Assembly (NCBI GenBank): GCA_963700145.1
Contig: OY969474.1
Coordinates: 1,824,001 to 1,888,000, forward strand
DNA length: 64,000 bases
Direction of reading: 5' to 3'
Source of the DNA: an uncultured Acidobacteriota bacterium
GTDB taxonomy: Bacteria; Acidobacteriota; Thermoanaerobaculia; Multivoradales; UBA5704
In this document: positions 22,309 through 35,727 of the stretch, one piece after another
Layout: each line of letters begins with the position of its first letter
Position numbering within the stretch: position 1 is the stretch's first letter
The notes under the pieces: model-generated
The model's database searches: none
What the model saw: the letters and a program-made list of their open reading frames with translations, nothing else
Told to the model about the DNA's origin: nothing
Translations under genes and position numbers: made by a program

Positions 22309-25300
22309 TTGGCACCCTCCAAGATCCTGGACGCGCTCTCCCGCTGGCCGGTCGCCCGGCAGCTCCGCGATGGCGACTGGACGGCCCTCGCCGGCCCCGC
22401 CCGCTCCCCCCGCACCGAGGCCCTCGCCCCCCGCACCGAGCGGGCCGACCGGGTGGTGCGCTCGGTCTGCCCCTACTGCGCCGTCGGCTGCGGCCAGCTC
22501 GTCTACGTCCAGGACGAGCGGATCACCGACATCGAGGGGGACCCGGACTCGCCGATCTCCCGGGGGTGCCTCTGCCCCAAGGGGGCGGCCACCTTCCAGC
22601 TCGTCACCGGCTCGCACCGGGTGAAAACCGTCCTCTATAGAGGACCCTACGGGACCGCCTGGGAGGCCATCCCCCTGGAGCGGGCGATGGACATGGTCGC
22701 CGAGCGGGTCAAGGCGGCTCGCGAGGCCACCTGGGAGGAGCGCCGCGCCGACGGGGCTCCCCTGCGCCGCACGATGGGCCTCGCCCACTTGGGCGGCGCC
22801 ACCCTCGACGACGAAGAGAACTACCTGATCAAGAAGCTCTTCACCGCCCTGGGGGTCGTCCAGATCGAGAACCAGGCCCGGATATGACACTCCGCCACGG
22901 TCCCCGGTCTGGGGACCTCCTTCGGGCGCGGCGGCGCCACCACCTTCCAGCAGGACCTCCAGAACGCGGACTGCATCGTGATCCAGGGGTCCAACATGGC
23001 GGAGTGCCACCCGGTGGGGTTCCGCTGGGTGATGGAGGCGAAGGCCCGCGGCGCGAAGGTCGTCCACGTCGACCCGCGCTTCACCCGCACCAGCGCGGTG
23101 GCCGACCTCCACGTGCCGCTGCGGGCGGGGAGCGACATCGCCTTCCTGGGCGGCCTGGTGAGCTACATCCTCGAGGAGGAGCGCTGGTTCCGCGACTACG
23201 TCGTCCACTACACGAACGCGGCGACCCTGGTCTCCGAGGACTTCCGCGACACCGAGGAGCTGGACGGCCTGTTCAGCGGCTGGGACCCGGAGAGCGGCCA
23301 CTACGACCCCAGCTCGTGGGCCTATGAAGGGGCCCCGGCCTCCGTGCCGACGGCGCACCGCGAGACGACGACCGGCGAGCCCGGCCCCGAGCGCAGCAAG
23401 CACCGCAAGCCGGCACGCACCGACCCCACCCTGCAGCACCCGCGCTGCGTCTTCCAGGTGCTACGCCGCCACTTCGCGCGCTACACGCCGGAGATGGTCG
23501 AGGAGGTCTGCGGCGTGCCGCGCGCCCTCTTCCTGCGCGTCGCCGAGACGATCTGCGCCAATTCCGGGCGCGAGCGGACGACCGCCTTCTGCTACGCCGT
23601 CGGCTGGACGCAGCACACGGTCGGCGTGCAGTACATCCGCACCGCGGCGATCGTCCAGCTCCTGCTCGGCAACGTCGGCCGCCCCGGCGGCGGCATCCTC
23701 GCGCTCCGCGGCCACGCCTCGATCCAGGGCTCGACCGACATCCCGACCCTCTACAACCTCCTTCCCGGCTACCTGCCGATGCCCAAGGCGCCGGCGGACC
23801 GCGACCTCGCGGCCTACCTCGAGCACAACACCGCCGAGACCGGCTGGTGGCACGAGCTCCCGAAGTACGCGGTGTCGCTGCTCAAGGCCTGGTTCGGCGC
23901 GGCGGCGACGGCTGTCAACGACTACCTCTTCGACGCGCTGCCGGCGATCGACGGCGACCACTCGCACATGGCGACGGTGGCGGCGATGGCCGACGGGAAG
24001 GTCAAGGGCTACTTCCTGATGGGCGAGAACCCGACGGTCGGCTCGATGCACGGCGGCCTTCAGCGCGCCGCCATGCGCCGGCTCGACTGGGTCGTGGTGC
24101 GCGACTTCGCGGTCACCGAGAGCGCCGAGGACTTCTGGCGCGAAGCGCCGGAAGAGGTCGAAACCGAGGTCTTCTTCTTCCCCTGCGCCGCGCACACCGA
24201 GAAGGACGGCACCTTCACCAACACGCAGCGGCTCCTGCAGTGGCACCACAAGGCGATCGAGCCGCCGGGAGACTGCCGCAGCGAGCTGCACTTCATGCTC
24301 CACCTCGGAAGGCGGCTCAAGGCGCTCTACGCCGGCTCGACCGACGCCAAGGACCGCGCGCTCCAGGCGCTGACCTGGGACTACCCCACCGTCGGCCCGT
24401 ACGACGAGCCGGACGCCGCGGCGGTGCTGGCCGAGATCAACGGGTACCGCGTGGCGGACGGGGCGCCGGTCGCCGGCTTCGGCGAGCTGGCCGCCGACGG
24501 TTCCACCGCCTGCGGCTGCTGGATCTACTCCGGCTGCTGCGCCGGCGGCGAGAACGGCCCGGCGCGGCGGCGGCCGGCCGGCGAGCAAAGCTGGGTGGCC
24601 CCCGACTGGGGGTGGGCGTGGCCGGCCAACCGGCGGCTCCTCTACAACCGCGCCTCGGCCGATCCCGAGGGGCGCCCCTGGTCGGAGCGCAAGCGCTACG
24701 TCTGGTGGGACGAGGCCGCCGGCCGCTGGACCGGGCACGACGCGCCCGACTTCCCCGTCGACCGTGCGCCTTCCTACCGGCCGCCGCGGGGCGCGCGCGG
24801 CGTGGCGGCGATCGGCGGCGCCGACCCCTTCGTCATGCAGTCCGACGGCCACGGCTGGCTCTTCGCGCCGAACGGCCTCCTCGACGGCCCCCTGCCGACT
24901 CACTACGAGCCGCAGGAATCGCCGATCGAGAACCCGCTCTACGCCCAGCAGCGCAACCCGGCGCGCCTCGAATGGCGGCGCCGCGACAACCCTTACCACC
25001 GCGCCGCGGGCGACCCGCGCTACCCCTACGTCCTCACCACCTACCGCCTGACCGAGCACCACACCGCCGGCGCCATGAGCCGCTGGCTCTCCTGGCTCGC
25101 CGAGCTGCAGCCCGAGCTGTTCTGCGAGGTCTCGCCGGAGCTGGCGGCCGAAAAGGGGCTAGCGCACGGCGGCTGGGCGACGATCTCGACGGCGCGCACG
25201 GCGATCGAGGCGCGGGTGCTCGTGACGCGGCGGCTGCCGGCGATCCGGCTCAAGGGGCGCGTCGTGCACCAGATCGGCCTCCCCTACCACTGGGGGAGCA

Positions 25301-25428
25301 AGGGGCGGGTGCGTGGCGACGCGGCCAACGAGCTGATCGGCTTCGTCGCCGACCCCAACGTCTCGATCCAGGAGTCGAAGGCCCTCACCGCCGACATCGC
25401 GCCGGGGCGGCGGAGCCGGAGCGCCTAG
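22309..25428 (+). CDS. fdnG: Formate dehydrogenase alpha subunit, selenocysteine-containing (in-frame UGA at 22885-22887)
   Basis: TTG start follows a GGAGGA RBS. Contains CPYCAVGCG and ENQARI-UGA-HSATVPGLG, in frame with ORF 22978..25428 (GSNMAECHP, ALRGHASIQG, TYRLTEHH). Confidence 0.92.
22899..22917 (+). promoter_or_regulatory. Bacterial SECIS hairpin
   Basis: Stem-loop GGTCCCC-GGTCT-GGGGACC begins 11 nt after the in-frame UGA. Confidence 0.85.
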
Positions 25429-25430
25429 CC

Positions 25431-26225
25431 GTGGCCGTCGGTTTTTTCACCGACACGACCGTCTGCATCGGCTGCAAGGCCTGCGAGGTGGCCTGCAAGG
25501 AGTGGAACCAGCTCCCCGACGACGGCTTCCACTTCACCGGCATGTCCTACGACAACACCGCCGCCCTCGGCGCCTCCACCTGGCGGCACGTCTCGTTCGT
25601 CGAGCGGCCGGTGGCGCTCTCCGAGCAGCTCACGGGCCTGGGGCAGTTCTCGTGGCTGATGATGTCGGACGTCTGCAAGCACTGCCAGCGCGCCGGGTGC
25701 CTGGAGGCCTGCCCCACCGGCGCCATCCTGCGCACCGAGCACGACACCGTCTACGTCCAGCCCGACATCTGCAACGGCTGCGGCTACTGCGTCACCGCCT
25801 GCCCGTTCGGGGTGATCGACCGGCGCGAGGACGACGGCCGCGCCTGGAAGTGCACGCTCTGCTACGACCGGCTCAAGGGCGCCCTGACGCCCGCCTGCGC
25901 CAAGGCCTGCCCCACCGACTCGATCCAGTTCGGCGAGCTCGACGAGCTGCGCGAGCGGGCGGCGCGGCGGCTGGCGGTGCTCCACGAGCGCGGCGTCGGC
26001 GAGGCCTGGCTTTACGGCGCCGACGCCGCCAGTCAGCCGGGAACTGGCGGCTTGAACGCCTTCTTCCTCCTCGTCGACCGGCCGGAGGTCTACAACCTGC
26101 CGCCCGAGCCGGTCGTGCCGACCCACCGCGCCGGCGAGGCCTGGGGGGCGATGGCGCTCGCCGCGCTCGGCATGGCGGCTGTGGCGCTGGGGTCCGTGCT
26201 GGCAACCCGATCCGGCCGCGGATGA
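25431..26225 (+). CDS. fdnH: Formate dehydrogenase iron-sulfur (beta) subunit
   Basis: CIGCKACEVACKEWN, CKHC...CLEACPTG, CNGCGYCVTACPF and KCTLC...CAKACPT, plus a C-terminal hydrophobic helix. Confidence 0.9.
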   Translation: MAVGFFTDTTVCIGCKACEVACKEWNQLPDDGFHFTGMSYDNTAALGASTWRHVSFVERPVALSEQLTGLGQFSWLMMSDVCKHCQRAGCLEACPTGAILRTEHDTVYVQPDICNGCGYCVTACPFGVIDRREDDGRAWKCTLCYDRLKGALTPACAKACPTDSIQFGELDELRERAARRLAVLHERGVGEAWLYGADAASQPGTGGLNAFFLLVDRPEVYNLPPEPVVPTHRAGEAWGAMALAALGMAAVALGSVLATRSGRG

Positions 26226-27250
26226 CCGATTCCGGCGGCGACGGCCGCTACGTCGATCCAGAGCTCGGCCTCCTCCTCGGCGAAGGCGCGGCGCAGCGGA
26301 TCGCGGCGGGCGAGGCGCGCGAGATCTGGCGCGACGTCGCCGCCAGCCTCCCCGCTCCCGGCGAAGGGCCCACCTACTACGACCGCCCGGTCCTCAAGGA
26401 GCCGGTCTGGATCTGGTCGGTGCCGGTCTACTTCTGGGCCGGTGGCACGATGGGAGCGGCGCTCGCCCTCGGCGGCGCGGCGCAGCTCGCCGGCGGCGAG
26501 GAGCTGCGCCCCTTCGTCCGCCGCTGCCGCTGGGTCGGCGCCGTCGGCGGCGCGGCGAGCGCCGCCCTCCTGATCCACGACCTCGGCCGCCCCGAGCGCT
26601 TCCACCACATGCTGCGGGTCTTCCGCCCGACCTCGCCGATGAGCGTCGGCTCCTGGGTCCTCGCCGCGGCGTCGACCCTGGCCGGCGGCGCCGCCCTCCT
26701 CGGCCGCCGCCGCGGCCTGCTGCGCGGCGCCGGCGACCTCGCCGGCCTCGGCGCCGCCCTCCTCGGCCTGCCGCTCGCCGGCTACACGGCGGTCCTCGTC
26801 GGCAACACCGCGGTGCCGGTCTGGCTGGCGGCGCGGCGAAGCCTGCCGTTCCTCTTCATCGCCTCCTCGATGTCGGGGGCGGCATCGTTTTTCGACCTAG
26901 GCTCCCTCAGACCGCGCGAGGCGAGGATGGTGCGCGCCTTCGGGATCGCCGGCAAGGCCGCCGAGCTGGCGGCGATGGCGGCGGTCGAGAGCGAGGCGGG
27001 ACGCGTCGAGCGGGTCGGGCGGCCGCTCCGCGAGGGGGTCTCCGGCGCCCTCTGGACCGCCGCCAAAGTGCTCACGGCCGCCAGCTTGGCGGCGACCCTC
27101 CTCCCCCGCCGCTCGCGCCGCGCGGGCCTCGCCGCCGGCCTCCTCGGCACTGCCGGCGCCCTCGCCCTCCGCTTCGCGGTCTTCCACGCCGGCAAGGCCT
27201 CCAGCCGCGATCCCCGGGCGACTTTCCTCCAGCAACGCGGCGGCGCCTGA
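26222..27250 (+). CDS. nrfD: NrfD/PsrC-family membrane anchor subunit
   Basis: YYDRPVLKEPVW, LLIHDLGRPERF, SPMSVGSW and YTAVL...W motifs, with many TM helices. Confidence 0.88.
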   Translation: MTDSGGDGRYVDPELGLLLGEGAAQRIAAGEAREIWRDVAASLPAPGEGPTYYDRPVLKEPVWIWSVPVYFWAGGTMGAALALGGAAQLAGGEELRPFVRRCRWVGAVGGAASAALLIHDLGRPERFHHMLRVFRPTSPMSVGSWVLAAASTLAGGAALLGRRRGLLRGAGDLAGLGAALLGLPLAGYTAVLVGNTAVPVWLAARRSLPFLFIASSMSGAASFFDLGSLRPREARMVRAFGIAGKAAELAAMAAVESEAGRVERVGRPLREGVSGALWTAAKVLTAASLAATLLPRRSRRAGLAAGLLGTAGALALRFAVFHAGKASSRDPRATFLQQRGGA

Positions 27251-27416: not shown

Positions 27417-27680
27417 ATGAAGCGTTCGCTTATCCGATCCTTGACAGCCCTGGCCGTGACGACTTTGCTTATGCTCGCACTCGCTCCAGCAGCAAACGCC
27501 GCCCCCTGGGGGCTGGCGGTCGAAAGCGGCTTTCGCGGCGCCGGCTGGTTCGAGAGCGCGCGCGAGTGGCTCCAGAGGCTCTTCGGGATGCAGTCGCCCG
27601 CTCCGAAGGCCAAGCAGAAGGCAGTGCAGCCGACCGGCTGCGGCATCGATGGGAATGGGAACCCGACTCCCTGCAGATAG
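27417..27680 (+). CDS. Small secreted peptide precursor 1 (87 aa, C-terminal GCGIDGNG...C)
   Basis: Purine-rich RBS, signal peptide ending ANA, Trp-rich amphipathic segment and DGNG motif. Lies 23 bp upstream of a TPR gene. Confidence 0.7.
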   Translation: MKRSLIRSLTALAVTTLLMLALAPAANAAPWGLAVESGFRGAGWFESAREWLQRLFGMQSPAPKAKQKAVQPTGCGIDGNGNPTPCR

Positions 27681-27703
27681 CTCTCCCTCGGAGGTTGAGT
27701 GCG

Positions 27704-29068
27704 ATGAAGGATCACCCGACCCCACGTGACCTCGAGGACTTCCTCGAGGGTTCGGCTCCCCCCGAAGTGAACCGGGGGGTGGTGCGCCACCTCCTCGCCG
27801 CCTGCACGGCGTGCCGCGGAGCCCTCCAGAGCATGGGATGGCGACCCGAGCGCCTCGAGCGCATCGTCTCCCTGGGCACGAGCAATCCGGAGGAGCTTCC
27901 GGAGTGGACGGTCGGGACCGAGAACCACGACTACGATCGCGCCTTCAGGAGGGCCTGGGAGGCGTGCGTGCAGGAGCTCCATTCGCCGACACCGCAGCGG
28001 CCCTCGCCTGCAGTCGACAGCGCCGACGAGGACCTACAGGTCGAGGAGCTTCTCGTGGGCGCCGAGGATCGTGTCCCCGAGTCCCGTCTGGTCGAGCTGC
28101 TCCTGGCACGCAGCCACGCCGCGCGCTATCGCGATGTCAGGGCGATGCTGCGCTGGGCGCGGTTGGCGCGGATCCTCGCGGAGCGTTGTGACGCAGCCGC
28201 CGCGGGAGGCGAGATCGCCCTCTTCGATTTGAAGGCGCGCGCTTGGGGACAGTGCGGGAATGCGTTGCGCGTGGCAGGCCGTCTGCGTGAAGCGGCAGCG
28301 GCGCTCGATCGATCCGGGACCTATGCTGCCCGGGGAAGTGGGGATGTCGCATTCAAAGCCCAGCTTCTGAGCTGGACCGCGAGCTTGCGGATCTTCGAGC
28401 GGCGATTCGACGACGCGATCACGCTGCTCGACGAAGCCGCTCGCATCGCCCGCAACCTCGGGATGCGAAGCGAGCTGGCGTGGTATCTGTCGAACCGGGC
28501 GCTCGCCACCGTCTACTCGGGCGACCCGGAGACGGCGATCCACATCCTGGACGAAGCGATGCCGCTGATCGATCCTGCGGAGCCCCACCTTCTCGTGGCC
28601 ATCTATCACAACCTGATCTACTGCTACGTCGAGGCCGGGCGGTTGCAAGAGGCCTTGGCGTTGATGCCGCGGACCCGCAGCGTCGGCGAGGAGATCGAGG
28701 ACGAGCTGCTGGGGCTCCGTCTCCTCTGGCAGGAAGCGCGGATCCTCTGCGAGCTCGGGCTCCTCGAGGAGGCCGAAGCCCAGTTCTCGCGCGCCCGCGA
28801 CGGGTTCCTCGAGCGCGACCTCTCGTACGAAGCGGCCGTCGTCTCCCTCGACCTCACGGCCGTCTACGTCAAGCTCGGCCTGCACACCGAGGTGCGCCGC
28901 ACGATCGGCGACATTCTGCCCATCTTCAGCAGCCTCCGCGTCGGCCGCGAGCTCCTCGCCTCGCTCATCCAGCTCCAGCAGGCCGAGGACCAGACCCAGG
29001 CCCTCCAGCTCATCCGCGCCCTCTCCCGCGAGCTCGTCGCCGGGCCCAAGCTGCCGCCGTCGGTTTGA
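27704..29068 (+). CDS. Zinc-finger (zf-HC2-like) / TPR-repeat protein 1
   Basis: GGAGG RBS. N-terminal HLLAACTAC, helical TPR-like repeats (AWGQCGNALRVAG) and C-terminal YEAAVVSLDL...ILPIF. Confidence 0.85.
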   Translation: MKDHPTPRDLEDFLEGSAPPEVNRGVVRHLLAACTACRGALQSMGWRPERLERIVSLGTSNPEELPEWTVGTENHDYDRAFRRAWEACVQELHSPTPQRPSPAVDSADEDLQVEELLVGAEDRVPESRLVELLLARSHAARYRDVRAMLRWARLARILAERCDAAAAGGEIALFDLKARAWGQCGNALRVAGRLREAAAALDRSGTYAARGSGDVAFKAQLLSWTASLRIFERRFDDAITLLDEAARIARNLGMRSELAWYLSNRALATVYSGDPETAIHILDEAMPLIDPAEPHLLVAIYHNLIYCYVEAGRLQEALALMPRTRSVGEEIEDELLGLRLLWQEARILCELGLLEEAEAQFSRARDGFLERDLSYEAAVVSLDLTAVYVKLGLHTEVRRTIGDILPIFSSLRVGRELLASLIQLQQAEDQTQALQLIRALSRELVAGPKLPPSV

Positions 29069-29094
29069 CCGCGGCCGTCCGCCCGGCCCGGCCT

Positions 29095-30126
29095 CTAGGT
29101 CCCCAGCTTCTCCCAGTCGCTGTCCGGGGCGTCCTGGGCGATGGCCAGGCCGCCGTCTGAGCCGACGAAGACCGGGTCCTTGACCACCCGCACCTTGCCG
29201 CCGCCGACCTCGGCGAGCGCGCGCTCGAGGCGCGGCCCGAGGCCGCGGACGAGGCCGGTGCCGCCCGAGAGGACGACGTTGTTGCGCACCCGTTCCTGGT
29301 ACTCGGGCTCGACGCGCGACAGCAGATCGAGCATCGACTCGACGAGCGGCGGCAGGACGCCCTCGCAGGCCTGGCGCATCTCGGCGGTGATGTCGATCTG
29401 CGTCGGCTTGCCCTCCACCGGCACCGTCACCACGACCGGGGCCTTGGTGTCGCCGACGAAGCTCGCCTCCTCCTTCCAGGCGCGCACCATGTGGATCGAG
29501 AAGCGCGCCTGCGGCTGCCGCTCGCGCAACAGGCGGAAGAGCTGCTCATCGATCCAGTCGCCGGCCACGGTCAGCGTGCGCTGGTCGTCCTCGGTCGGCA
29601 GGCGGCCGTTCATGACGCAGAGGTCGGTGGTGCCGGCGCCGATGTCGATGATCATCGAGTGCAGCAGCGCCTCCATGCCGTAGGCCACGGCGAACGGCTC
29701 GGAGACGATGAGCAGGTTGTCCACCGCCCCCTGCAGCGCCTTGCGCACGTGCTGCTTGTTGACCCGCAGCGCCTCGGCCGGCACGCCGACGACGGCGCGC
29801 ACCTTGGCGCCGTTGCGCGCCGCCGGGTCGACGCCGGCCAAGCCCAGGAGGTGGCGCAGGAGCTCGCGCACCGCCGCTTCGTCTTTCTCCGAGCCGTCCT
29901 TGATCAGCCCCGCTTCCAGCGGCCGGTGGAGGTCGAGCATGGTGCGGTTGTCGAGCGCCTCGCGGCCGATCAGCACCGGGCGCTTGAGCACCTTGCGGGC
30001 CACCATGTCGAGCGGCCAGCCGACGTAGCTGTCCACCACGTGGCGCTGGCCGTTGGAAGCGGAGATCGAGCTCCTCGAGGTGCCGAGGTCGATCCCCACG
30101 AGCACGACGTCGGGGCGGTCGGTCAT
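29095..30126 (-). CDS. mamK: MamK-like bacterial actin
   Basis: GIDLGTS, AVVGVP, VSEPF.V.YG, IDIGAGTTD.C, DQ.TL..AG..IDE, PEYQ..V..N.V.SGG, VKDP.F.G and W..LG follow the MamK pattern (recalled from memory) rather than MreB. Confidence 0.8.
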   Translation of the reverse strand: MTDRPDVVLVGIDLGTSRSSISASNGQRHVVDSYVGWPLDMVARKVLKRPVLIGREALDNRTMLDLHRPLEAGLIKDGSEKDEAAVRELLRHLLGLAGVDPAARNGAKVRAVVGVPAEALRVNKQHVRKALQGAVDNLLIVSEPFAVAYGMEALLHSMIIDIGAGTTDLCVMNGRLPTEDDQRTLTVAGDWIDEQLFRLLRERQPQARFSIHMVRAWKEEASFVGDTKAPVVVTVPVEGKPTQIDITAEMRQACEGVLPPLVESMLDLLSRVEPEYQERVRNNVVLSGGTGLVRGLGPRLERALAEVGGGKVRVVKDPVFVGSDGGLAIAQDAPDSDWEKLGT

Positions 30127-30131
30127 CGCGG

Positions 30132-31157
30132 TCAGATTCCTTTCTGGGCGGCGGCGACGCCGGCGGCATAGGTGCGCACGCCGGCGGCGAGCGCCTCGGC
30201 GATCGCCTGCCGGTAGTCGGGGCTGGCGAGCAGGCGCGCCTCCTCCTCGTTCGAGAGGCAGGAGACCTCGGCCAGCACCGAGGGCATCTCGGTGGTGATG
30301 AGGACGATGAAGGGGGCGGCCTTGACGCCGCGGTCCTGGAGCGCCGGGTTGGCCGGGGCGAGCGAGCGGACGAGCGACCCCTGGAGCACCTCGGCGAGTC
30401 GCCGCGACTCCACCTGGCGCACGTCGGTGTAGATGCGTTCGAGGAGCGGCTTGAGGTCCGCCAGCGAGTAACCCGAGTCGTGGTTCTCGGCGGCGGCGAG
30501 GCGGTTGACGATGGGGTCGTCGCTGGCGCCGGCGTAATAGGTCTCGACGCCGCGCGCCGCGCGGTCCTCGATCCAGTTGAGGTGGATCGAGAGGAACAGG
30601 TCGGCGCCGGCCTCGTTGGCGAGCCGCGCCCGCTCCTTGAGCGGCACCTCGCGGTCGCCGCGGCGGGTCAGCACGGGCTCGAAGGCGTCGGCCGCGAGGC
30701 GGCGCGCGAGGCGGCGGGCGATGTCGAGCGTCAGCTCCTTCTCGAGCGGCCCCTGCGCGGCGCGGGTGCCGAGGCTGGCGCCGCCGTGGCCGGGGTCGAT
30801 CGCCACCCGCCGCACCGCGAGCGGGAAGACCGCGGGGTCGATCGGCCGCGGCGCGGGGAGGAGCGCGGCGGCGCGGGCGGCCGACGGCACCGCGAGCGCC
30901 GGCGCGGCGGCAGGGGTCGCCGCGGCGGCCGCCCGGGGGGCCTCCCGGCCGCCGCGGCCGCCGAGGAGCTGCGAGGAGCCGTAGAGCGCCACCGGCAGCA
31001 GCAGCACCACACCGAGGCGGAGCACCTCGCGCCCCAGCCAGCGCCGGCGCCGCCGCCGCGGCGGCAGGCCGTGGATCAGCTCGAGGTTCTCTTGCACGAG
31101 ATCGCGGAGCAGACGGCGCTTGCGCCGGGCGGAGAGCGCGGGCAGACCCAACGGCAC
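30132..31157 (-). CDS. Membrane-anchored N-acetylmuramoyl-L-alanine amidase (Amidase_3)
   Basis: N-terminal TM helix, then IDPGHGG, EKELTL, FLSIHLN, GVETYY and MPSVLAEV. Confidence 0.92.
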   Translation of the reverse strand: MPLGLPALSARRKRRLLRDLVQENLELIHGLPPRRRRRRWLGREVLRLGVVLLLPVALYGSSQLLGGRGGREAPRAAAAATPAAAPALAVPSAARAAALLPAPRPIDPAVFPLAVRRVAIDPGHGGASLGTRAAQGPLEKELTLDIARRLARRLAADAFEPVLTRRGDREVPLKERARLANEAGADLFLSIHLNWIEDRAARGVETYYAGASDDPIVNRLAAAENHDSGYSLADLKPLLERIYTDVRQVESRRLAEVLQGSLVRSLAPANPALQDRGVKAAPFIVLITTEMPSVLAEVSCLSNEEEARLLASPDYRQAIAEALAAGVRTYAAGVAAAQKGI

Positions 31158-31223
31158 GACGGCGGCGGTTCCTCGGAAGTTGCTCGATTAAATACGGTTG
31201 CGGAGTGTACTACAGCTCGCGCC

Positions 31224-32639
31224 TCAGCCCCGGCCCAAGCGCACGACAAGCGCGCCGTCCACCTCGCGGACGGCGCGAACCACGACCCCGCGGTCGGCCA
31301 GGTCGAGCACCAGGTGGAGCTCGTCCTCTCCCGGCAGCACGTGGTGGCCGGTGCGCACCTGCTTCAGGTGCGGCGAGCCGACGGCGAGGAGGGCGCGGCC
31401 GAACGGGCGCTCGACGCCGCGGATGCGGAAGACCTCGCGCGGCGCCGGGCCGTCGAGGCGGTCGCGGGCGTAGCCGCCGGCCGCGATCGGCCCGTCACCG
31501 CGGATCGTCACCTCCGTCTCGCCGTCCACCTGCCGCCAGTCGATGCTGCGGATCGCGGTGAGGCGGACCGTGGGTGCCGGCGCGGGCGCGGCGGCGGCCG
31601 GCGGAGGGGCGGCCGGCTCCGCGAGGGTCGGCGGTTCGGCGCCAGGAGCGGCGGCGGCTGCCGCGGCGGTGTCGTCGCCGACGAGCGCCGGGAGCGGCTC
31701 CGGGATGGCGTCGTCCGAGGCGGCCGCCGCGGACGCCGGCGCTCCGGCCGGCGGCGCCGCCGGCGTCTCGGCGGTGGCAGTGGCCGAGCGCGCCGCCGGC
31801 CCCCGCTCGGGCGCCGCGCCGTCGCCGCCGAGGAGCCCGAAGCGGCGCATCAGGGGCTCCTGGAAGGCGAAGGCCGCCACGCCCAACGCGACGACCGCCA
31901 GCACCGCGGCGAGAGCGGCGATCCGCCGTGGGCTCCTCCGCTCGGGCGGGGGCGCGGCGGCGGCGTACGTGGCGAGCGGCGCCGGCGGCACCGGGAGAGG
32001 GGGCGGAGGCGCGGCGAGCGGCGCCGGCGCCGGCGCGACGATCGGCTCGACCGGCGGCCCGAAGGTCCGCGCCGCGAGGTCCGGCAGCGAGAGCGAGGCG
32101 AGCGCCGGGTTGGAGACGACGGGAAGAGGGACGGCGGCTACTTCCACTTCCACGTCGCCGGCCTCTTCCACGTCGCCGGCCTCGCTCGCCTCGTCCGCGG
32201 TGTCCAGCTCGCCGCTCTCGCTCTCCGCGACCGCCGCCGCAGCGCTCGTTTCCGCCTCCGGCCCCTGCTCGACGTCGAAGGGAATCCCCCCCTCGTGGAT
32301 GTACTCGTCCACCATCTTGTAGATCAGCTCGCGGCTCCCCTTCGACAGCCGCAGGAAGCGGATCCCCATGCCCGCGGGCTTGGCGGCGCCCTGGTCGTCG
32401 CTGCGGGTCCAGACGACCTCGCCGGTGCCCTTGATCAGCGGGTAGCCGTCGCCGAGCTGGAACTCGAAATCGAGGAGGGTCCCGACCGGCGAGGGGGCCT
32501 GCGTCTTGACGAACAGGCCCCCCGGCGAGACGTTGGAGGAGTACTCGCTGATGAAGCCCGAGAAGCGCTCGAAGCGGAGCTGTACCCGCGTCTCGAGCGG
32601 TACCCGGCGGGAGTCCCGCGAGGTGGCGTAATCCGTCAT
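31224..32639 (-). CDS. PilZ (TIGR02266-type) - linker - TM - AMIN-like domain protein
   Basis: RDSRR (RxxxR) and NVSPGG (NxSxxG) PilZ motifs plus GMGIRF. Pro/Ala linker, one TM helix, C-terminal LDGPAPREVFRI...VRTGHH...LHLVLDL AMIN-like domain. Confidence 0.8.
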   Translation of the reverse strand: MTDYATSRDSRRVPLETRVQLRFERFSGFISEYSSNVSPGGLFVKTQAPSPVGTLLDFEFQLGDGYPLIKGTGEVVWTRSDDQGAAKPAGMGIRFLRLSKGSRELIYKMVDEYIHEGGIPFDVEQGPEAETSAAAAVAESESGELDTADEASEAGDVEEAGDVEVEVAAVPLPVVSNPALASLSLPDLAARTFGPPVEPIVAPAPAPLAAPPPPLPVPPAPLATYAAAAPPPERRSPRRIAALAAVLAVVALGVAAFAFQEPLMRRFGLLGGDGAAPERGPAARSATATAETPAAPPAGAPASAAAASDDAIPEPLPALVGDDTAAAAAAAPGAEPPTLAEPAAPPPAAAAPAPAPTVRLTAIRSIDWRQVDGETEVTIRGDGPIAAGGYARDRLDGPAPREVFRIRGVERPFGRALLAVGSPHLKQVRTGHHVLPGEDELHLVLDLADRGVVVRAVREVDGALVVRLGRG

Positions 32640-32717
32640 CAATGACTGCTCAATTGCAGGAGTGGAGAGAGTAGTGCCCCGGACCGGGGCAGTCAACAAC
32701 CGACGCGCCCGCCGGCG

Positions 32718-33989
32718 TCAGGTCGTGCGGCGGCGCTCGCGCTTCAGGAACTCGGCGAGGTGGCGGGCCAGCTCGAGGGTGAGGGTCTCCTCCTCGGCGG
32801 CGTGCTGGAACATGAGGAGAGCGGCCATCGCCTCGCGGTGCACCTCGCGCGACTCGAAGACCGGCAGGAGCTCGGCGGCGAGCTGCTTGAGCTCGGCGGT
32901 GCACCCCTCTTGGGCGTAGAGCATGGCGAGGTCGAGCGAGACGAGCGCCGCGTCGTAGCCCATGCCGCGTTCGAAGAACTCCTTCTGCACCTCGCGGAAC
33001 GACGCCTCCGCCGCGCCCAGCCGCCCGAGGCCGAAGGCGATGCGCCCTTCGGCCCAGGCGACGCGGACGAGGTCGAGAGGGTTGCGCTGGTCGAGCGCGA
33101 CGCGGCGCAGCTCGGGCAGCGCTTCTTCGGCCTCCCCGTGCTTGCCCGCGGCGATGAGCAATGCAACCAGATTCAGGTGGGAGCAGAAGATGAGACGCGG
33201 CTCGCGGAGCGGATCGAGCAGGGGGCTGGCCTCGTGCAGGAACGCGATCGCGGGCTCGAACTCTCCCTGCTCTTCCAGCACCGAGGCCTTGTTGATGAGG
33301 GACCTGCCGGCGCGGTGGAGGTCGCCCAGCTCGCGGAAGATGTCGATCGCTTGATCGAGCAGGGTCAACGCCTCGCCGAACCGCCGCTGGCCGCGCCGGA
33401 GCGACGCTTTCAGGTCGTAGACCTCGGCGCGCACCTTGAGATTGCCCGTCGTGCTCGTCGCCAGGAAAGTCTCGGAGCGCCGAAACGCCTCGTCGGCGCT
33501 CCACAGCTCCCCGAGCACCCGCCGAGCGTTGCCCAGATGAGCCCAGCACTTCGCTCGGAGGTCGGTGACCCAGTGCGGGTCGTAGGCTTCGCCGGGAAGG
33601 AGGTCGGCGATCCGGACGCCGAGCTCGGCGAACGAGACGGCTTCGGCCGGGTCGTCCAGGGCCGCCTCCAAGCTGCGCTTCAAGAGGAGCTGACAGAGCC
33701 CCCACGTCTGCAGCTCGCCGTCCTGGTCGATGCGCGCGAGCCGCTCCTCGAACGGCAGATCGGCTAGACGGGCGAGCTGCTCCGGGGCGCGCAGCCCTTC
33801 GTTGACCACAATCACTTCGTTCCAGTGCTCGACCTGCTCTTGGAGGCGCAGGATCTCCTCGCAGCGCTCGCGACAGGTAGGACAGTGGGCGAGGAAGTGA
33901 GGAATGACGTGTCGCTGGAGATCCTCGTACGGCAGCTCTCCGGAAAGCCAGCTCGCGAGCGCCTCCATCGACAGATGTTCATTCCTCAC
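32718..33989 (-). CDS. Zinc-finger (zf-HC2-like) / TPR-repeat protein 2
   Basis: GTG follows a GGAGG RBS. N-terminal HFLAHCPTC, CWAHLGNARRVLG and C-terminal YDAALVSLDL...LLPVF make it a clear paralog of 27704..29068. Confidence 0.85.
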   Translation of the reverse strand: MRNEHLSMEALASWLSGELPYEDLQRHVIPHFLAHCPTCRERCEEILRLQEQVEHWNEVIVVNEGLRAPEQLARLADLPFEERLARIDQDGELQTWGLCQLLLKRSLEAALDDPAEAVSFAELGVRIADLLPGEAYDPHWVTDLRAKCWAHLGNARRVLGELWSADEAFRRSETFLATSTTGNLKVRAEVYDLKASLRRGQRRFGEALTLLDQAIDIFRELGDLHRAGRSLINKASVLEEQGEFEPAIAFLHEASPLLDPLREPRLIFCSHLNLVALLIAAGKHGEAEEALPELRRVALDQRNPLDLVRVAWAEGRIAFGLGRLGAAEASFREVQKEFFERGMGYDAALVSLDLAMLYAQEGCTAELKQLAAELLPVFESREVHREAMAALLMFQHAAEEETLTLELARHLAEFLKRERRRTT

Positions 33990-34078
33990 TCCGATGCCTC
34001 CTAGAGGTAACAGAGTCCGGGCAGCCGGTGCCCCTTCTAGATCATCTGTTTCCAAACTCGGCGATTTCGTGACAGGGA

Positions 34079-34294
34079 CTAGCCGTTCGGATCTCCCGCC
34101 AGCCCCTCCTGCTCCCAGATCCCCGCCAGACCCCTCCACACCCGCTCCACGGCCTCCAGCATCCAAGTACGGCCCGGGGCGGTGATCCGCCCTTCGTGGC
34201 GGTCCCGGCCGCGGCTCCAGGCGGCGGCGGGGACGGTGCCGAGGGCGGCGAGCAGGACGAGGGCGGCGAACGCCCGGTTCCATCTCCTAGACAT
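34079..34294 (-). CDS. Small secreted peptide precursor 2 (71 aa, C-terminal EGLAGDPNG)
   Basis: GAAGGAGA RBS, signal peptide ending AAA, Trp-rich amphipathic segment, ends in DPNG. Directly upstream of TPR gene 2. Confidence 0.7.
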   Translation of the reverse strand: MSRRWNRAFAALVLLAALGTVPAAAWSRGRDRHEGRITAPGRTWMLEAVERVWRGLAGIWEQEGLAGDPNG

Positions 34295-34500
34295 GGTCTC
34301 TCCTTCTTCCCGGGGCGGGTCCCTGGACGCTCTAGTGCGGCCCGGGCCAAGCCTCCAGAAACAAAGTTGACCCGTCCGGAACAAACGTGACATCGGAGGA
34401 GATAACTTTTCGCCCTTTTCGGCACCCCTTGGCCGCCATTTGGATCGCCGCCCGGCAGGCGCTGTGGTACAAAGGGCCGACTTTTTCGCCCGGAGGGACA

Positions 34501-35727
34501 ATGACGACCGCGCTGATGGAGACGACGAAGGCCCAGGAGCTGGTCGCGCTCGAGGAGCGCTACGGCGCCCACAACTACCACCCCCTGGACGTGGTGGTGG
34601 CGCGCGCCGAGGGCTGCTGGGTGTGGGACGTGGAAGGCCGCAAGTACCTCGACTTCCTGGCCGCCTACTCGGCGGTCAACCAGGGACATTGCCACCCGAA
34701 GATCGTCGCGGCGCTGGTCGAGCAGGCGCAGAAGGTGACGCTCACCTCGCGCGCCTTCCGCAACGACCAGCTCGGCCCCTTCTACAAGGAGCTGTGCGAG
34801 CTGGCCGGCTTCGCCAAGGCGCTGCCCATGAACAGCGGCGCCGAGGCGGTGGAGACGGCGATCAAGGCCGCCCGCAAGTGGGCTTACACGGTCAAGGGCG
34901 TGGCCGAGGGGCAGGCAGAGATCCTGGCCTTCGAGAACAACTTCCACGGCCGCACGACGACGATCGTCAGCTTCTCGACCGAGGAGCAGTACCGGCACGG
35001 CTTCGGACCCTTCACCCCCGGCTTCCGGGTGCTCCCCTACGGCGACGCCGAGGCGGTCGCCGCGGCGATGCACTCGAACGTGGCGGCGGTGCTGGTCGAG
35101 CCGATCCAGGGGGAGGCCGGGATCGTCGTCCCGCCGGCCGGCTTCCTGCGCCGCCTGCGCGAGATCACCCAGGAGCACCGGGCCCTCCTCATTGCCGACG
35201 AGATCCAGTCAGGACTCGGCCGCACCGGCCGGCTCTTCGCCTACGAGCACGAGGGGATCCGGCCGGACGTCGTCATCCTCGGCAAGGCGCTCTCCGGCGG
35301 GGCTTACCCGGTGTCGGCGATCCTCGCCGACGACGAGGTCATGGGGGTCTTCAGGCCCGGCGACCACGGCTCGACCTTCGGCGGCAACCCTTTGGCCGCC
35401 GCCATCGGGCGGGCCGCGATGCGGGTCCTGGTCGAGGAGCGGCTGGTCGAGAACTCGGCGGCGATGGGCCCCTACTTCCTCGAGCGGCTGCGGGCGATCC
35501 GCTCGCGCCACGTCAAGGAGGTGCGGGGCGTCGGCCTCTGGATCGGCGTCGAGCTCCACCGCGAGGCCGGCGGCGCCCGCCGCTTCTGCGAGGCCCTGCA
35601 GCAAGAGGGGCTCCTGTGCAAGGAGACCCACGACCACGTCATCCGCATCGCGCCGCCGCTGACGATCCAGAAGGACGAGATCGACTGGGCGGTGGAGCGG
35701 CTGGAACGGGTGCTGACGACGCTGTAA
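34501..35727 (+). CDS. rocD: Ornithine--oxo-acid aminotransferase
   Basis: [57 protein letters not shown] and HGSTFGGNP. Confidence 0.95.

Follow-up and report, generated by a model that had tools for sequence, protein, structure and literature searches.

The locus studied here raises the question of what a MamK-like actin does outside any evident magnetosome cluster, and what links it to the cell-wall amidase encoded directly before it. The window, by which we mean the whole analysed stretch of 64,000 nt, covers positions 1,824,001–1,888,000 of the single-contig 5.46-Mb genome of a soil acidobacterium (95.4% complete, G+C content ∼73%). Three co-oriented genes on its minus strand encode, in the order of transcription, a protein with a PilZ domain, an N-acetylmuramoyl-L-alanine amidase, and the actin; their G+C content at third codon positions (GC3) is 0.92–0.98, as in coding regions. 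The amidase and the actin form a real, widespread, and uncharacterised module. We regard it as fairly likely that this module connects the cytoskeleton to the cell wall, with the MamK-like filament docking and positioning the membrane-anchored amidase.

In relatives from several phyla, the amidase gene lies directly upstream of the actin gene in 171 of 174 loci, the other three being cut by contig ends with less than 80 nt of upstream sequence. Among close loci of the Thermoanaerobaculia type, with actins 79–99% identical to that of the window, this holds for 79 of 80, and the eightieth has 59 nt upstream. The same arrangement was seen in all 14 loci from more distant Acidobacteriota (actins down to 49% identity); they represent 14 genomes out of 29, besides that of the window, in which the actin was matched. 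The actin itself is present (E≤1e-40) in 30 of 401 sampled Acidobacteriota genomes, including the source genome. Its occurrence in the others falls with distance, from 2/2 in the family and 14/15 in the order to 8/21 in the class and 5/362 in the rest of the phylum. Farther out, the nearest outside representative (P0126, 53% identical, with one member from Nitrospira sp.) led to a set comprising the best 80 loci of 141 species, and in 78 of these the amidase is upstream, while the other two have less than 80 nt upstream. These loci span Desulfobulbaceae and other Desulfobacterota, Nitrospirota, Aminicenantes, Methylomirabilis (Methylomirabilota), Gammaproteobacteria, Alphaproteobacteria (Rhodospirillaceae), and Chrysiogenales. 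By the called starts, the two genes in relatives most often overlap by 4 nt (31 loci) or lie 3 nt apart (18 loci). The conserved core is a two-gene unit of amidase and actin, and the link noted in the initial annotation is very strongly kept across phyla (79/80, 14/14, and 78/80). Up to 8 kb from mamK, no amidase was found in 11 magnetotactic loci, nor up to 5 kb from the actin in any of 80 Planctomycetota loci (P0130 type, kept from a set of 107 species).

The initial annotation had described the three genes as co-oriented with 5 bp between amidase and actin, and the coordinates of the genes (32639–31224, 31157–30132, and 30126–29095) confirm this. The module consists of the following features.

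29095–30126, minus strand: MamK-like actin of the amidase-linked subfamily, 343 amino acids (NCBIfam and PDB matches; GC3 0.98)

30127–30131, minus strand: 5-nt spacer from the amidase stop codon to the start codon (ATG) of the actin; AAAGGA is located ∼12 nt ahead of that codon (read from the sequence)

30132–31157, minus strand: bitopic N-acetylmuramoyl-L-alanine amidase, 341 amino acids (Pfam Amidase_3, 158.3 bits)

30174–30806, minus strand: Amidase_3 catalytic domain, residues 118–328, including the regulatory-helix insert LAAAEN at 30483–30500

30978–31025, minus strand: amidase membrane span, residues 45–60, a hydrophobic stretch with RRRRRRW before it

31083–31121, minus strand: cytoplasmic N-terminal motif of the amidase, KRRLLRDLVQENL, residues 13–25, predicted to dock (conservation and complex prediction)

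31224–32639, minus strand: PilZ-TM-AMIN protein (TM, transmembrane span), 471 amino acids, with the ATG at 32639 (Pfam PilZ and TIGR02266; orthologs keep the start M(T/V)DY)

31227–31559, minus strand: C-terminal AMIN-fold domain, residues 361–471, putatively periplasmic by its topology (AlphaFold 2 model and fold match)

31863–31922, minus strand: membrane span of the PilZ protein, residues 240–259, preceded by ERRSPRR (from the sequence; topology putative)

32310–32618, minus strand: PilZ domain, with RDSRR at 32604–32618 and NVSPGG at 32517–32534

Of the characterised actins, MamK is the nearest. The NCBIfam MamK profile (NF040964) matches the protein with 372.7 bits over positions 2–331 of 335, which is below the curated cut-off of 400. 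In the PDB, the best matches are MamK structures 5ljw and 5jyg (E 9e-78, full length), followed by BeeR (8r2n, 5e-41) and MreB (1jce, 3e-14), and the identity to Magnetospirillum-type MamK is 39–41%. All seven MamK motifs that the initial annotation had listed along the length of the protein are present and align with solved MamK. Among the residues considered for the phosphate-1, phosphate-2, and adenosine motifs and the catalytic Glu/Asp, D13, G15, T16, D161, G163–T166, and G288 are invariant across 55 aligned relatives and E143 and G289 nearly so; E143 and D161 are the residues with a role in MamK. The BeeR profile (NF053558) gives 203.9 bits, also short of its cut-off of 530. The conserved core begins at residue 8, with no N-terminal extension of 30–50 residues of the BeeR kind.

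The protein could also be a second MreB that guides wall elongation, as it matches Pfam MreB_Mbl with 76.2 bits and most related actins are annotated in the source records as "rod shape-determining protein" (P0126 is named "MamK family actin-like protein"). However, it scores only 57.8 of 365.75 bits with the mreB profile TIGR00904 and 72 of 293 with PRK13927, far less than with MamK, and a very long branch separates it from the MreB of the same genome. As the initial annotation had stated of mreC, mreD, and further mam genes, no mre or mam genes are found in the window; a canonical mreB-mreC-mreD-rodA operon is located at ∼3.518 Mb instead. The MreB encoded there has GTANT as its phosphate-1 motif, whereas the actin has GTSRS, so that the reported lack of GTANT is borne out. 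On these four grounds (profile scores, long branch, separate mre operon, and GTSRS), we rejected an MreB paralogue as very improbable. By sequence, the actin is MamK-like and not MreB.

To place the actin within its family, we built a quick IQ-TREE phylogeny of 80 hand-chosen rows from the locus sets, with MreB as the outgroup and branch support from the SH-like approximate likelihood ratio test (SH-aLRT) only. All 23 sampled amidase-linked actins, that of the window included, form one clade (SH-aLRT 100). A position within canonical MreB, the outcome that the initial annotation had named as speaking against it, was not seen. All ten magnetosome-type rows fall into a separate clade (99), so that in this tree the actin lies outside the magnetosome MamK clade; these rows comprise six Magnetospirillum-type loci, a MamK-like protein of M. 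magneticum, a metagenomic "Magnetosome protein MamK", a deltaproteobacterial "MamK family" protein, and a Magnetococcales protein. Planctomycetota actins form a third clade (95), and BeeR-like rows a fourth (100). The four clades themselves are well supported but the branching order among them is not, so that the role seen here may or may not be ancestral for MamK, a possibility raised in the initial annotation.

The wider family also has unusual members. Fourteen cluster representatives (P0139–P0149, P0156, P0157, P0160, and P0171), 523–1232 amino acids long, carry the MamK-like actin domain at the C-terminus and form one well-supported clade. Their N-terminal parts of 190–900 residues are rich in Lys and Asn and look like coiled coils, with no Pfam match in the three that were scanned. 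P0191, a protein of 768 amino acids named "Magnetosome protein MamK [uncultured bacterium]", seems by eye to combine an FtsZ/tubulin-like N-terminus (a GGAGCNAV-type start) with a MamK domain. In the Streptomyces loci L191 and L192, two divergent actin-like genes lie ∼3 kb apart on opposite strands, both weak matches with 26–28% identity to MamK-like queries.

The similarity to MamK raises a further alternative, that the actin is a remnant of a magnetosome cluster or a piece of a silent one, or even the true MamK of an unrecognised magnetic organelle. Silent magnetosome clusters are on record in non-magnetotactic bacteria, according to one report (PMC9938234), and MamK is the closest characterised actin. 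To look for such a cluster, we ran the magnetosome profiles MamI (NF040963), MamP (NF040965), MamQ (NF040966), and MamO (NF040961) on the whole genome. MamI had no match, whereas it exceeded its cut-off in all three Magnetospirillum-type genomes used as a positive control. MamP (29.7 of 300 bits), MamQ (107 of 250), and MamO (91 of 800) gave sub-threshold generic matches at scattered sites outside the module; the search was limited to these four mam genes. The genomic context therefore differs from that of a magnetosome mamK: the genome appears to have no magnetosome cluster, and the initial claim of an actin outside such a cluster holds at the genome level. Moreover, the clade is apart from magnetosome MamK, and the amidase partner is kept in ∼170 loci of lineages not known as magnetotactic. 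We rejected a remnant cluster on the missing match to MamI, the scattered weak matches to the other three profiles, and the separate clade, and consider any magnetosome explanation extremely improbable.

The amidase belongs to the Amidase_3 family (PF01520, 158.3 bits, residues 118–328), with the zinc ligands, the catalytic Glu, and the regulatory insert all in place. Its closest PDB matches are E. coli AmiA (8c2o, 1e-29), Bartonella AmiB (3ne8, 7e-27), and AmiC (4bin, 4e-20), although the cut-offs of the AmiA/B/C equivalog profiles are not reached. In an alignment of 55 amidases, the catalytic residues H124, E139, H192, and E297 are invariant, as is N225 of the regulatory helix, while E224 is nearly so. 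The alignment with AmiA and AmiB runs through the insert (LAAAEN) that bears their self-inhibiting helix, and for short amidases that lack this insert the alignment is only partial. For this reason, the enzyme is probably self-inhibited and kept off until it is activated. The membrane span at residues 45–60 aligns with hydrophobic stretches in all relatives shown, and by the positive-inside rule the N-terminus would be cytoplasmic.

The genome encodes two further Amidase_3 proteins, of 716 and 587 amino acids, neither of which has a Pfam AMIN match. The frame of the 716-residue protein (∼3.2397–3.2419 Mb) has at its end the best Amidase_3 match of the genome (174.6 bits); its first ∼450 residues contain no clear Pfam domain, only a weak match to Cu_amine_oxidN1. 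A canonical FtsA is also present (415.6 bits). Judged from these genes, the module does not replace the canonical systems but coexists with mreBCD-rodA, FtsA, and the two other amidases.

The short cytoplasmic tail of the module's amidase carries a conserved motif, [KR]xx[IL]Lxx[VL][YV]xxN, or, in its fuller alignment form, [KR]xx[IL]L[RKQ]x[VL][YV][EQ][EDQ]N, followed by a basic stretch and then the membrane span. N24 is the only invariant residue of the cytoplasmic N-terminus, and across the 55 amidases from several phyla it is as invariant as the catalytic residues. The strict pattern was found in 141 of 164 amidase reading frames, and several of the misses are near-variants or cut genes. 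A relaxed pattern was found upstream of the actin in 72/72 close loci and in 66/73 loci of the P0126 type, against a background of 1–5 matches per ∼600,000 residues of other frames. In Planctomycetota, the gene just upstream of the actin does not encode an amidase, yet its product ends with the same motif (e.g., KKxLMxxIFxxNL) in 59 of the 77 loci with enough sequence, although one of the 59 seems spurious. A domain scan of four such proteins revealed clear GGDEF domains in two (64.8 and 50.7 bits), a weak match in the third, and none in the fourth. The Planctomycetota motif lies ∼130–300 nt upstream of the actin start. Beside magnetosome mamK, the motif was found in none of ten loci. A motif that tracks the actin across different cargo and different protein ends would be difficult to account for if it were not the docking site of the actin.

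Modelling the actin with the cytoplasmic tail of the amidase, an analysis suggested in the initial annotation, indeed predicts docking. For the actin and tail residues 1–44, each supplied with a 55-row alignment, three runs scored 0.79, 0.80, and 0.79, versus 0.39 for the best of three controls. Of the solved complexes used for calibration, 58 of 80 pass the mark applied to such scores, as do 2 of 110 mismatched pairs; with custom alignments this calibration is only rough. At least 78% of the contacts recur between runs, and the predicted local distance difference test (pLDDT) of the partner is at least 66. Tail residues 12–28 are predicted to contact the actin at 121–128, 138–141, 152–155, 174–176, and the C-terminal helix 329–342, with N24 placed on 138–141. 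By analogy with other actins, whose partner helices bind in the cleft between subdomains IA and IIA, this surface would correspond to that cleft. We conclude that the amidase tail probably docks on the actin filament.

Another explanation would be that amidase and actin are only co-expressed from one operon, perhaps for a common process, the tail not being docked and its motif serving membrane insertion, oligomerisation, or another partner. Gene adjacency does not show binding, the predicted complex is only a model, and the residues of its interface are not specific to the amidase-linked clade. However, co-expression would not account for the motif on a different, non-amidase protein of the GGDEF type, at the C-terminus, in 59/77 Planctomycetota loci and its absence from the ten mamK loci, for a motif Asn as invariant as catalytic residues, or for a docking score of 0.79 against 0.39 in the best control. 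We therefore consider mere co-expression unlikely.

Unlike the core, the third gene varies between lineages. The PilZ protein of the window matches Pfam PilZ (45.4 bits) and TIGR02266 (85.5 bits) and has RDSRR (RxxxR) at residues 8–12 and NVSPGG ((D/N)xSxxG) at residues 36–41, so by sequence it has the features of a receptor for cyclic di-GMP (c-di-GMP); both motifs are kept in 64 of 65 PilZ matches of related loci. The protein also has linkers rich in Ala and Pro and a single hydrophobic span (240–259). Its last 125 residues, modelled with AlphaFold on an alignment of 41 orthologs, give a pLDDT of 93.5 and match the AMIN fold of E. coli AmiC (4bin, residues 33–145; Z score 13.0, root-mean-square deviation 2.3 Å over 103 residues) and of PilQ (3jc8_Qa, Z 13.0; 4aqz/4av2, Z 11.4), the best other fold reaching Z 8.8. 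In this model, the C-terminal domain is AMIN by fold and not by Pfam profile. Of the PilZ-TM-AMIN architecture proposed in the initial annotation, the PilZ domain and the span thus stand by sequence, while the AMIN domain is supported by its fold and missed by Pfam.

The PilZ-AMIN gene precedes the amidase gene in 62/80 close loci, or 62 of the 67 that are testable. Of the other 18 close loci, 13 have too little upstream sequence, three retain the C-terminal domain only, and two (L013 and L033) have no such gene. In five loci (L073, L008, L039, L038, and L060), 378–2306 nt lie between the PilZ stop and the amidase match, compared with ∼30–180 nt elsewhere. The PilZ frame of L039 stops prematurely, and inserted sequence, gene decay, or faulty assembly may account for these cases. 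Farther from the window's clade within the Acidobacteriota, the PilZ gene is missing or downstream: the actin is followed by a PilZ-AMIN-like gene in L092 and a PilZ gene in L093, and elsewhere by genes for an AMIN-like protein without PilZ (L084) or a SPOR protein (L089). With the PilZ protein of the window as query, no PilZ match was found in the 80 P0126 loci, some of them from acidobacterial Aminicenantes. In four Nitrospirota loci (L130:7052–8020, L138:7034–8281, L143:4652–5815, and L157:7044–8246), the actin gene is immediately followed by one for a response-regulator receiver (REC) joined to a C-terminal SPOR domain, and in a fifth (L135:7018–7770) by one for a receiver-PilZ protein. 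Most loci of Desulfobulbaceae and Gammaproteobacteria show no such third gene. The PilZ-AMIN gene is therefore a lineage-specific accessory.

Where a third gene is present, a pattern recurs, in which an inner signalling domain is joined to an outer wall-binding domain (PilZ with the AMIN fold, or REC with SPOR). AMIN and SPOR domains bind the septal wall, SPOR recognising denuded septal glycan. The three-gene order noted initially is thus conserved within the window's own clade (62/67) and not beyond it. Since the order is limited to this clade, c-di-GMP gating would be an add-on at the level of the lineage and not part of the core; the c-di-GMP-gated trans-envelope module of the initial annotation is a fair description of this lineage's version, but not of the core.

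In the mechanism that we favour, the catalytic domain of the amidase would be located in the periplasm and the actin, encoded by the next gene, in the cytoplasm. The first ∼30 residues of the amidase would form an amphipathic helix that inserts into the actin surface formed by residues 121–176 and 329–342. The polymerised actin could then hold, cluster, or move the amidase along a track under the membrane, and the filament would thereby decide where peptide stems leave the glycan strands. The third protein of this lineage would add a cytoplasmic PilZ domain with intact c-di-GMP-binding motifs and a periplasmic AMIN fold for wall targeting; AMIN domains target AmiC and PilQ to the septal wall. 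Most likely, the module would serve to split the wall locally or at the septum, for the separation of daughter cells or a change of shape, with control by a second messenger. The gene order and its conservation, the family assignments, the tail motif, the AMIN fold, and the lack of magnetosome genes are observed; the scheme infers that the actin forms filaments, that the tail docks on them, how the proteins are oriented in the membrane, that the PilZ domain binds c-di-GMP, and what the module does in the cell.

Alternatively, the module may have no part in cell separation and instead open the wall locally at a site marked by the filament, either for an envelope-spanning machine (type IV pili, for example) or as part of a developmental change of shape. 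The AMIN domain is known from type IV pili, the PilQ structure 3jc8_Qa being one of the two best fold matches, and PilZ proteins are known from type IV pilus systems. In addition, FtsA and the two other amidases could serve ordinary separation. On the other hand, no pilus gene is seen beside the module within the window, the SPOR domains of other lineages bind denuded septal glycan, and the amidase is of the AmiA/B/C separation type. We find a role in opening the wall for such a machine improbable, about as much so as co-expression without docking.

Several observations weigh against docking of the amidase on a MamK-like filament under c-di-GMP control. The MamK score stays below the curated NCBIfam cut-off. 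The tail pattern is missed in 7/73 P0126-type and 18/77 Planctomycetota loci. The complex score expresses only the confidence of the model, and its pass could owe something to likeness, as solved structures, such as that of ParM-ParR, contain peptides in actin-family clefts. The interface residues are about equally conserved in magnetosome MamK, which has no partner motif nearby, so that their conservation is not specific and carries no clade-specific signal. Pfam AMIN has no match at E≤10 in the whole PilZ protein or its last 128 residues, where only PilZ was found, and beyond the window's own clade the PilZ gene is outside the core. Finally, as other amidases, FtsA, and MreB are present, the cellular role cannot be deduced from missing genes.

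The proposed docking of the amidase on the actin resembles several known systems without matching any of them. MamK of Magnetospirillum (PDB 5ljv, 5ljw, and 5jyg) shares the nucleotide-binding motifs and the C-terminal W..LG, and together with adaptors such as MamJ it shares the idea of a filament that holds membrane-attached cargo via an adaptor. Unlike MamK, the actin of the module scores below the family cut-off and belongs to a separate clade, and its cargo would be a wall amidase with its own docking peptide. In the plasmid-segregating ParM-ParR system, the terminal helix of the adaptor binds the actin cleft, similarly to the short amphipathic helix predicted here in a hydrophobic cleft of the actin; the differences are a membrane-enzyme cargo instead of DNA, another actin family, and no centromere. 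Like MreB with RodZ in the elongasome, the module would couple a cytoplasmic actin to outer wall enzymes through the inner tail of a bitopic protein, although here the enzyme is a hydrolase and not a synthase, it carries the tail itself, and mreBCD-rodA form a separate operon. The amidases AmiA, AmiB, and AmiC of E. coli, which are controlled by AMIN targeting, EnvC/NlpD activation, and FtsN/SPOR, have the same regulatory-helix insert, and the gene clusters of the module's amidase also encode AMIN-fold or SPOR domains. However, the E. coli amidases are soluble proteins of the periplasm, whereas the module's enzyme is anchored in the membrane, has a tail on the cytoplasmic side, and leaves the AMIN fold to the separate PilZ protein.

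MamK-related actins of bacteria that are not magnetotactic have been described before. BeeR, a three-stranded actin of Verrucomicrobiota, is related to MamK and has no known function (PMC11929497; PDB 8r2n); the module actin differs from it in the profile score (203.9 of 530 bits), the missing N-terminal extension, and the separate clade of BeeR-like rows. A further published case is the MamK-like "big bacteria protein" (Bbp) of non-magnetic Desulfobacterota and Gammaproteobacteria, which is tied to large cells (PMC10580974). By that description, Bbp differs in its neighbours, given there as a hypothetical gene and a Kelch-like gene with no mention of an amidase. That MamK homologs occur in some non-magnetotactic genomes is also stated in a preprint (bioRxiv 10.1101/682252, citing Lefevre 2013). 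We found no literature link between a MamK-like actin and an amidase, in a search that excluded supplementary phylogenies, which could already show the clade.

The surroundings of the module include genes that recur less regularly. Co-oriented with the module and upstream of it is a possible but non-conserved member:

32718–34283, minus strand: TPR (tetratricopeptide repeat) protein (Pfam TPR_12 and others)

A protein at least 44% identical to it is co-oriented and upstream in ∼20 of the 80 close loci, while others have weaker TPR matches (30–39%) elsewhere, so that it recurs 5′ of the PilZ gene in only some relatives. TPR proteins thus flank the module on both sides, as a second one (27566–29068, plus strand) is convergent with it; this downstream protein recurs in many relatives at variable distance. 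Further away, genes for a molybdopterin oxidoreductase (with its start upstream of 22978) and then an NrfD-type membrane subunit (22978–27250, plus strand) are syntenic with the module in many relatives. A scan of 28800–34600 revealed no promoter-like site and one terminator-like site on the plus strand, opposite to the module, with no excess over shuffled sequences.

The wider interest lies in how bacteria keep dangerous wall hydrolases to their proper sites. Spatial control as known so far is periplasmic, by AMIN or SPOR targeting and LytM activators, or acts via FtsEX, and the module suggests a further, undescribed way in which wall cleavage may be directed from the cytoplasm. If true, a cytoplasmic actin filament that directly grips the tail of an amidase would establish a new principle, and a function would be found for a large MamK-like family labelled "rod shape-determining protein" in databases. 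The 12-residue motif with its invariant Asn offers a testable handle and may let the partners of orphan bacterial actins be predicted. More tentatively, and with somewhat less than an even expectation of being right, we propose that MamK-like actins outside magnetotactic bacteria are a widespread third bacterial-actin system, which reads the docking code [KR]xx[LM][LM]xx[IL][FYV]xxN on varied cargo, is wired to c-di-GMP, and in one large multi-phylum clade has a self-inhibited wall amidase as its cargo, so that place and time of wall cutting would be set by the filament; magnetosome positioning would then be one specialisation of a general family of actins that position cargo. The c-di-GMP links are the PilZ partners here, REC-PilZ in one Nitrospirota locus, and the GGDEF-domain cargo in Planctomycetota. 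The recurrence of such parts suggests that the module links lifestyle signalling to wall remodelling.

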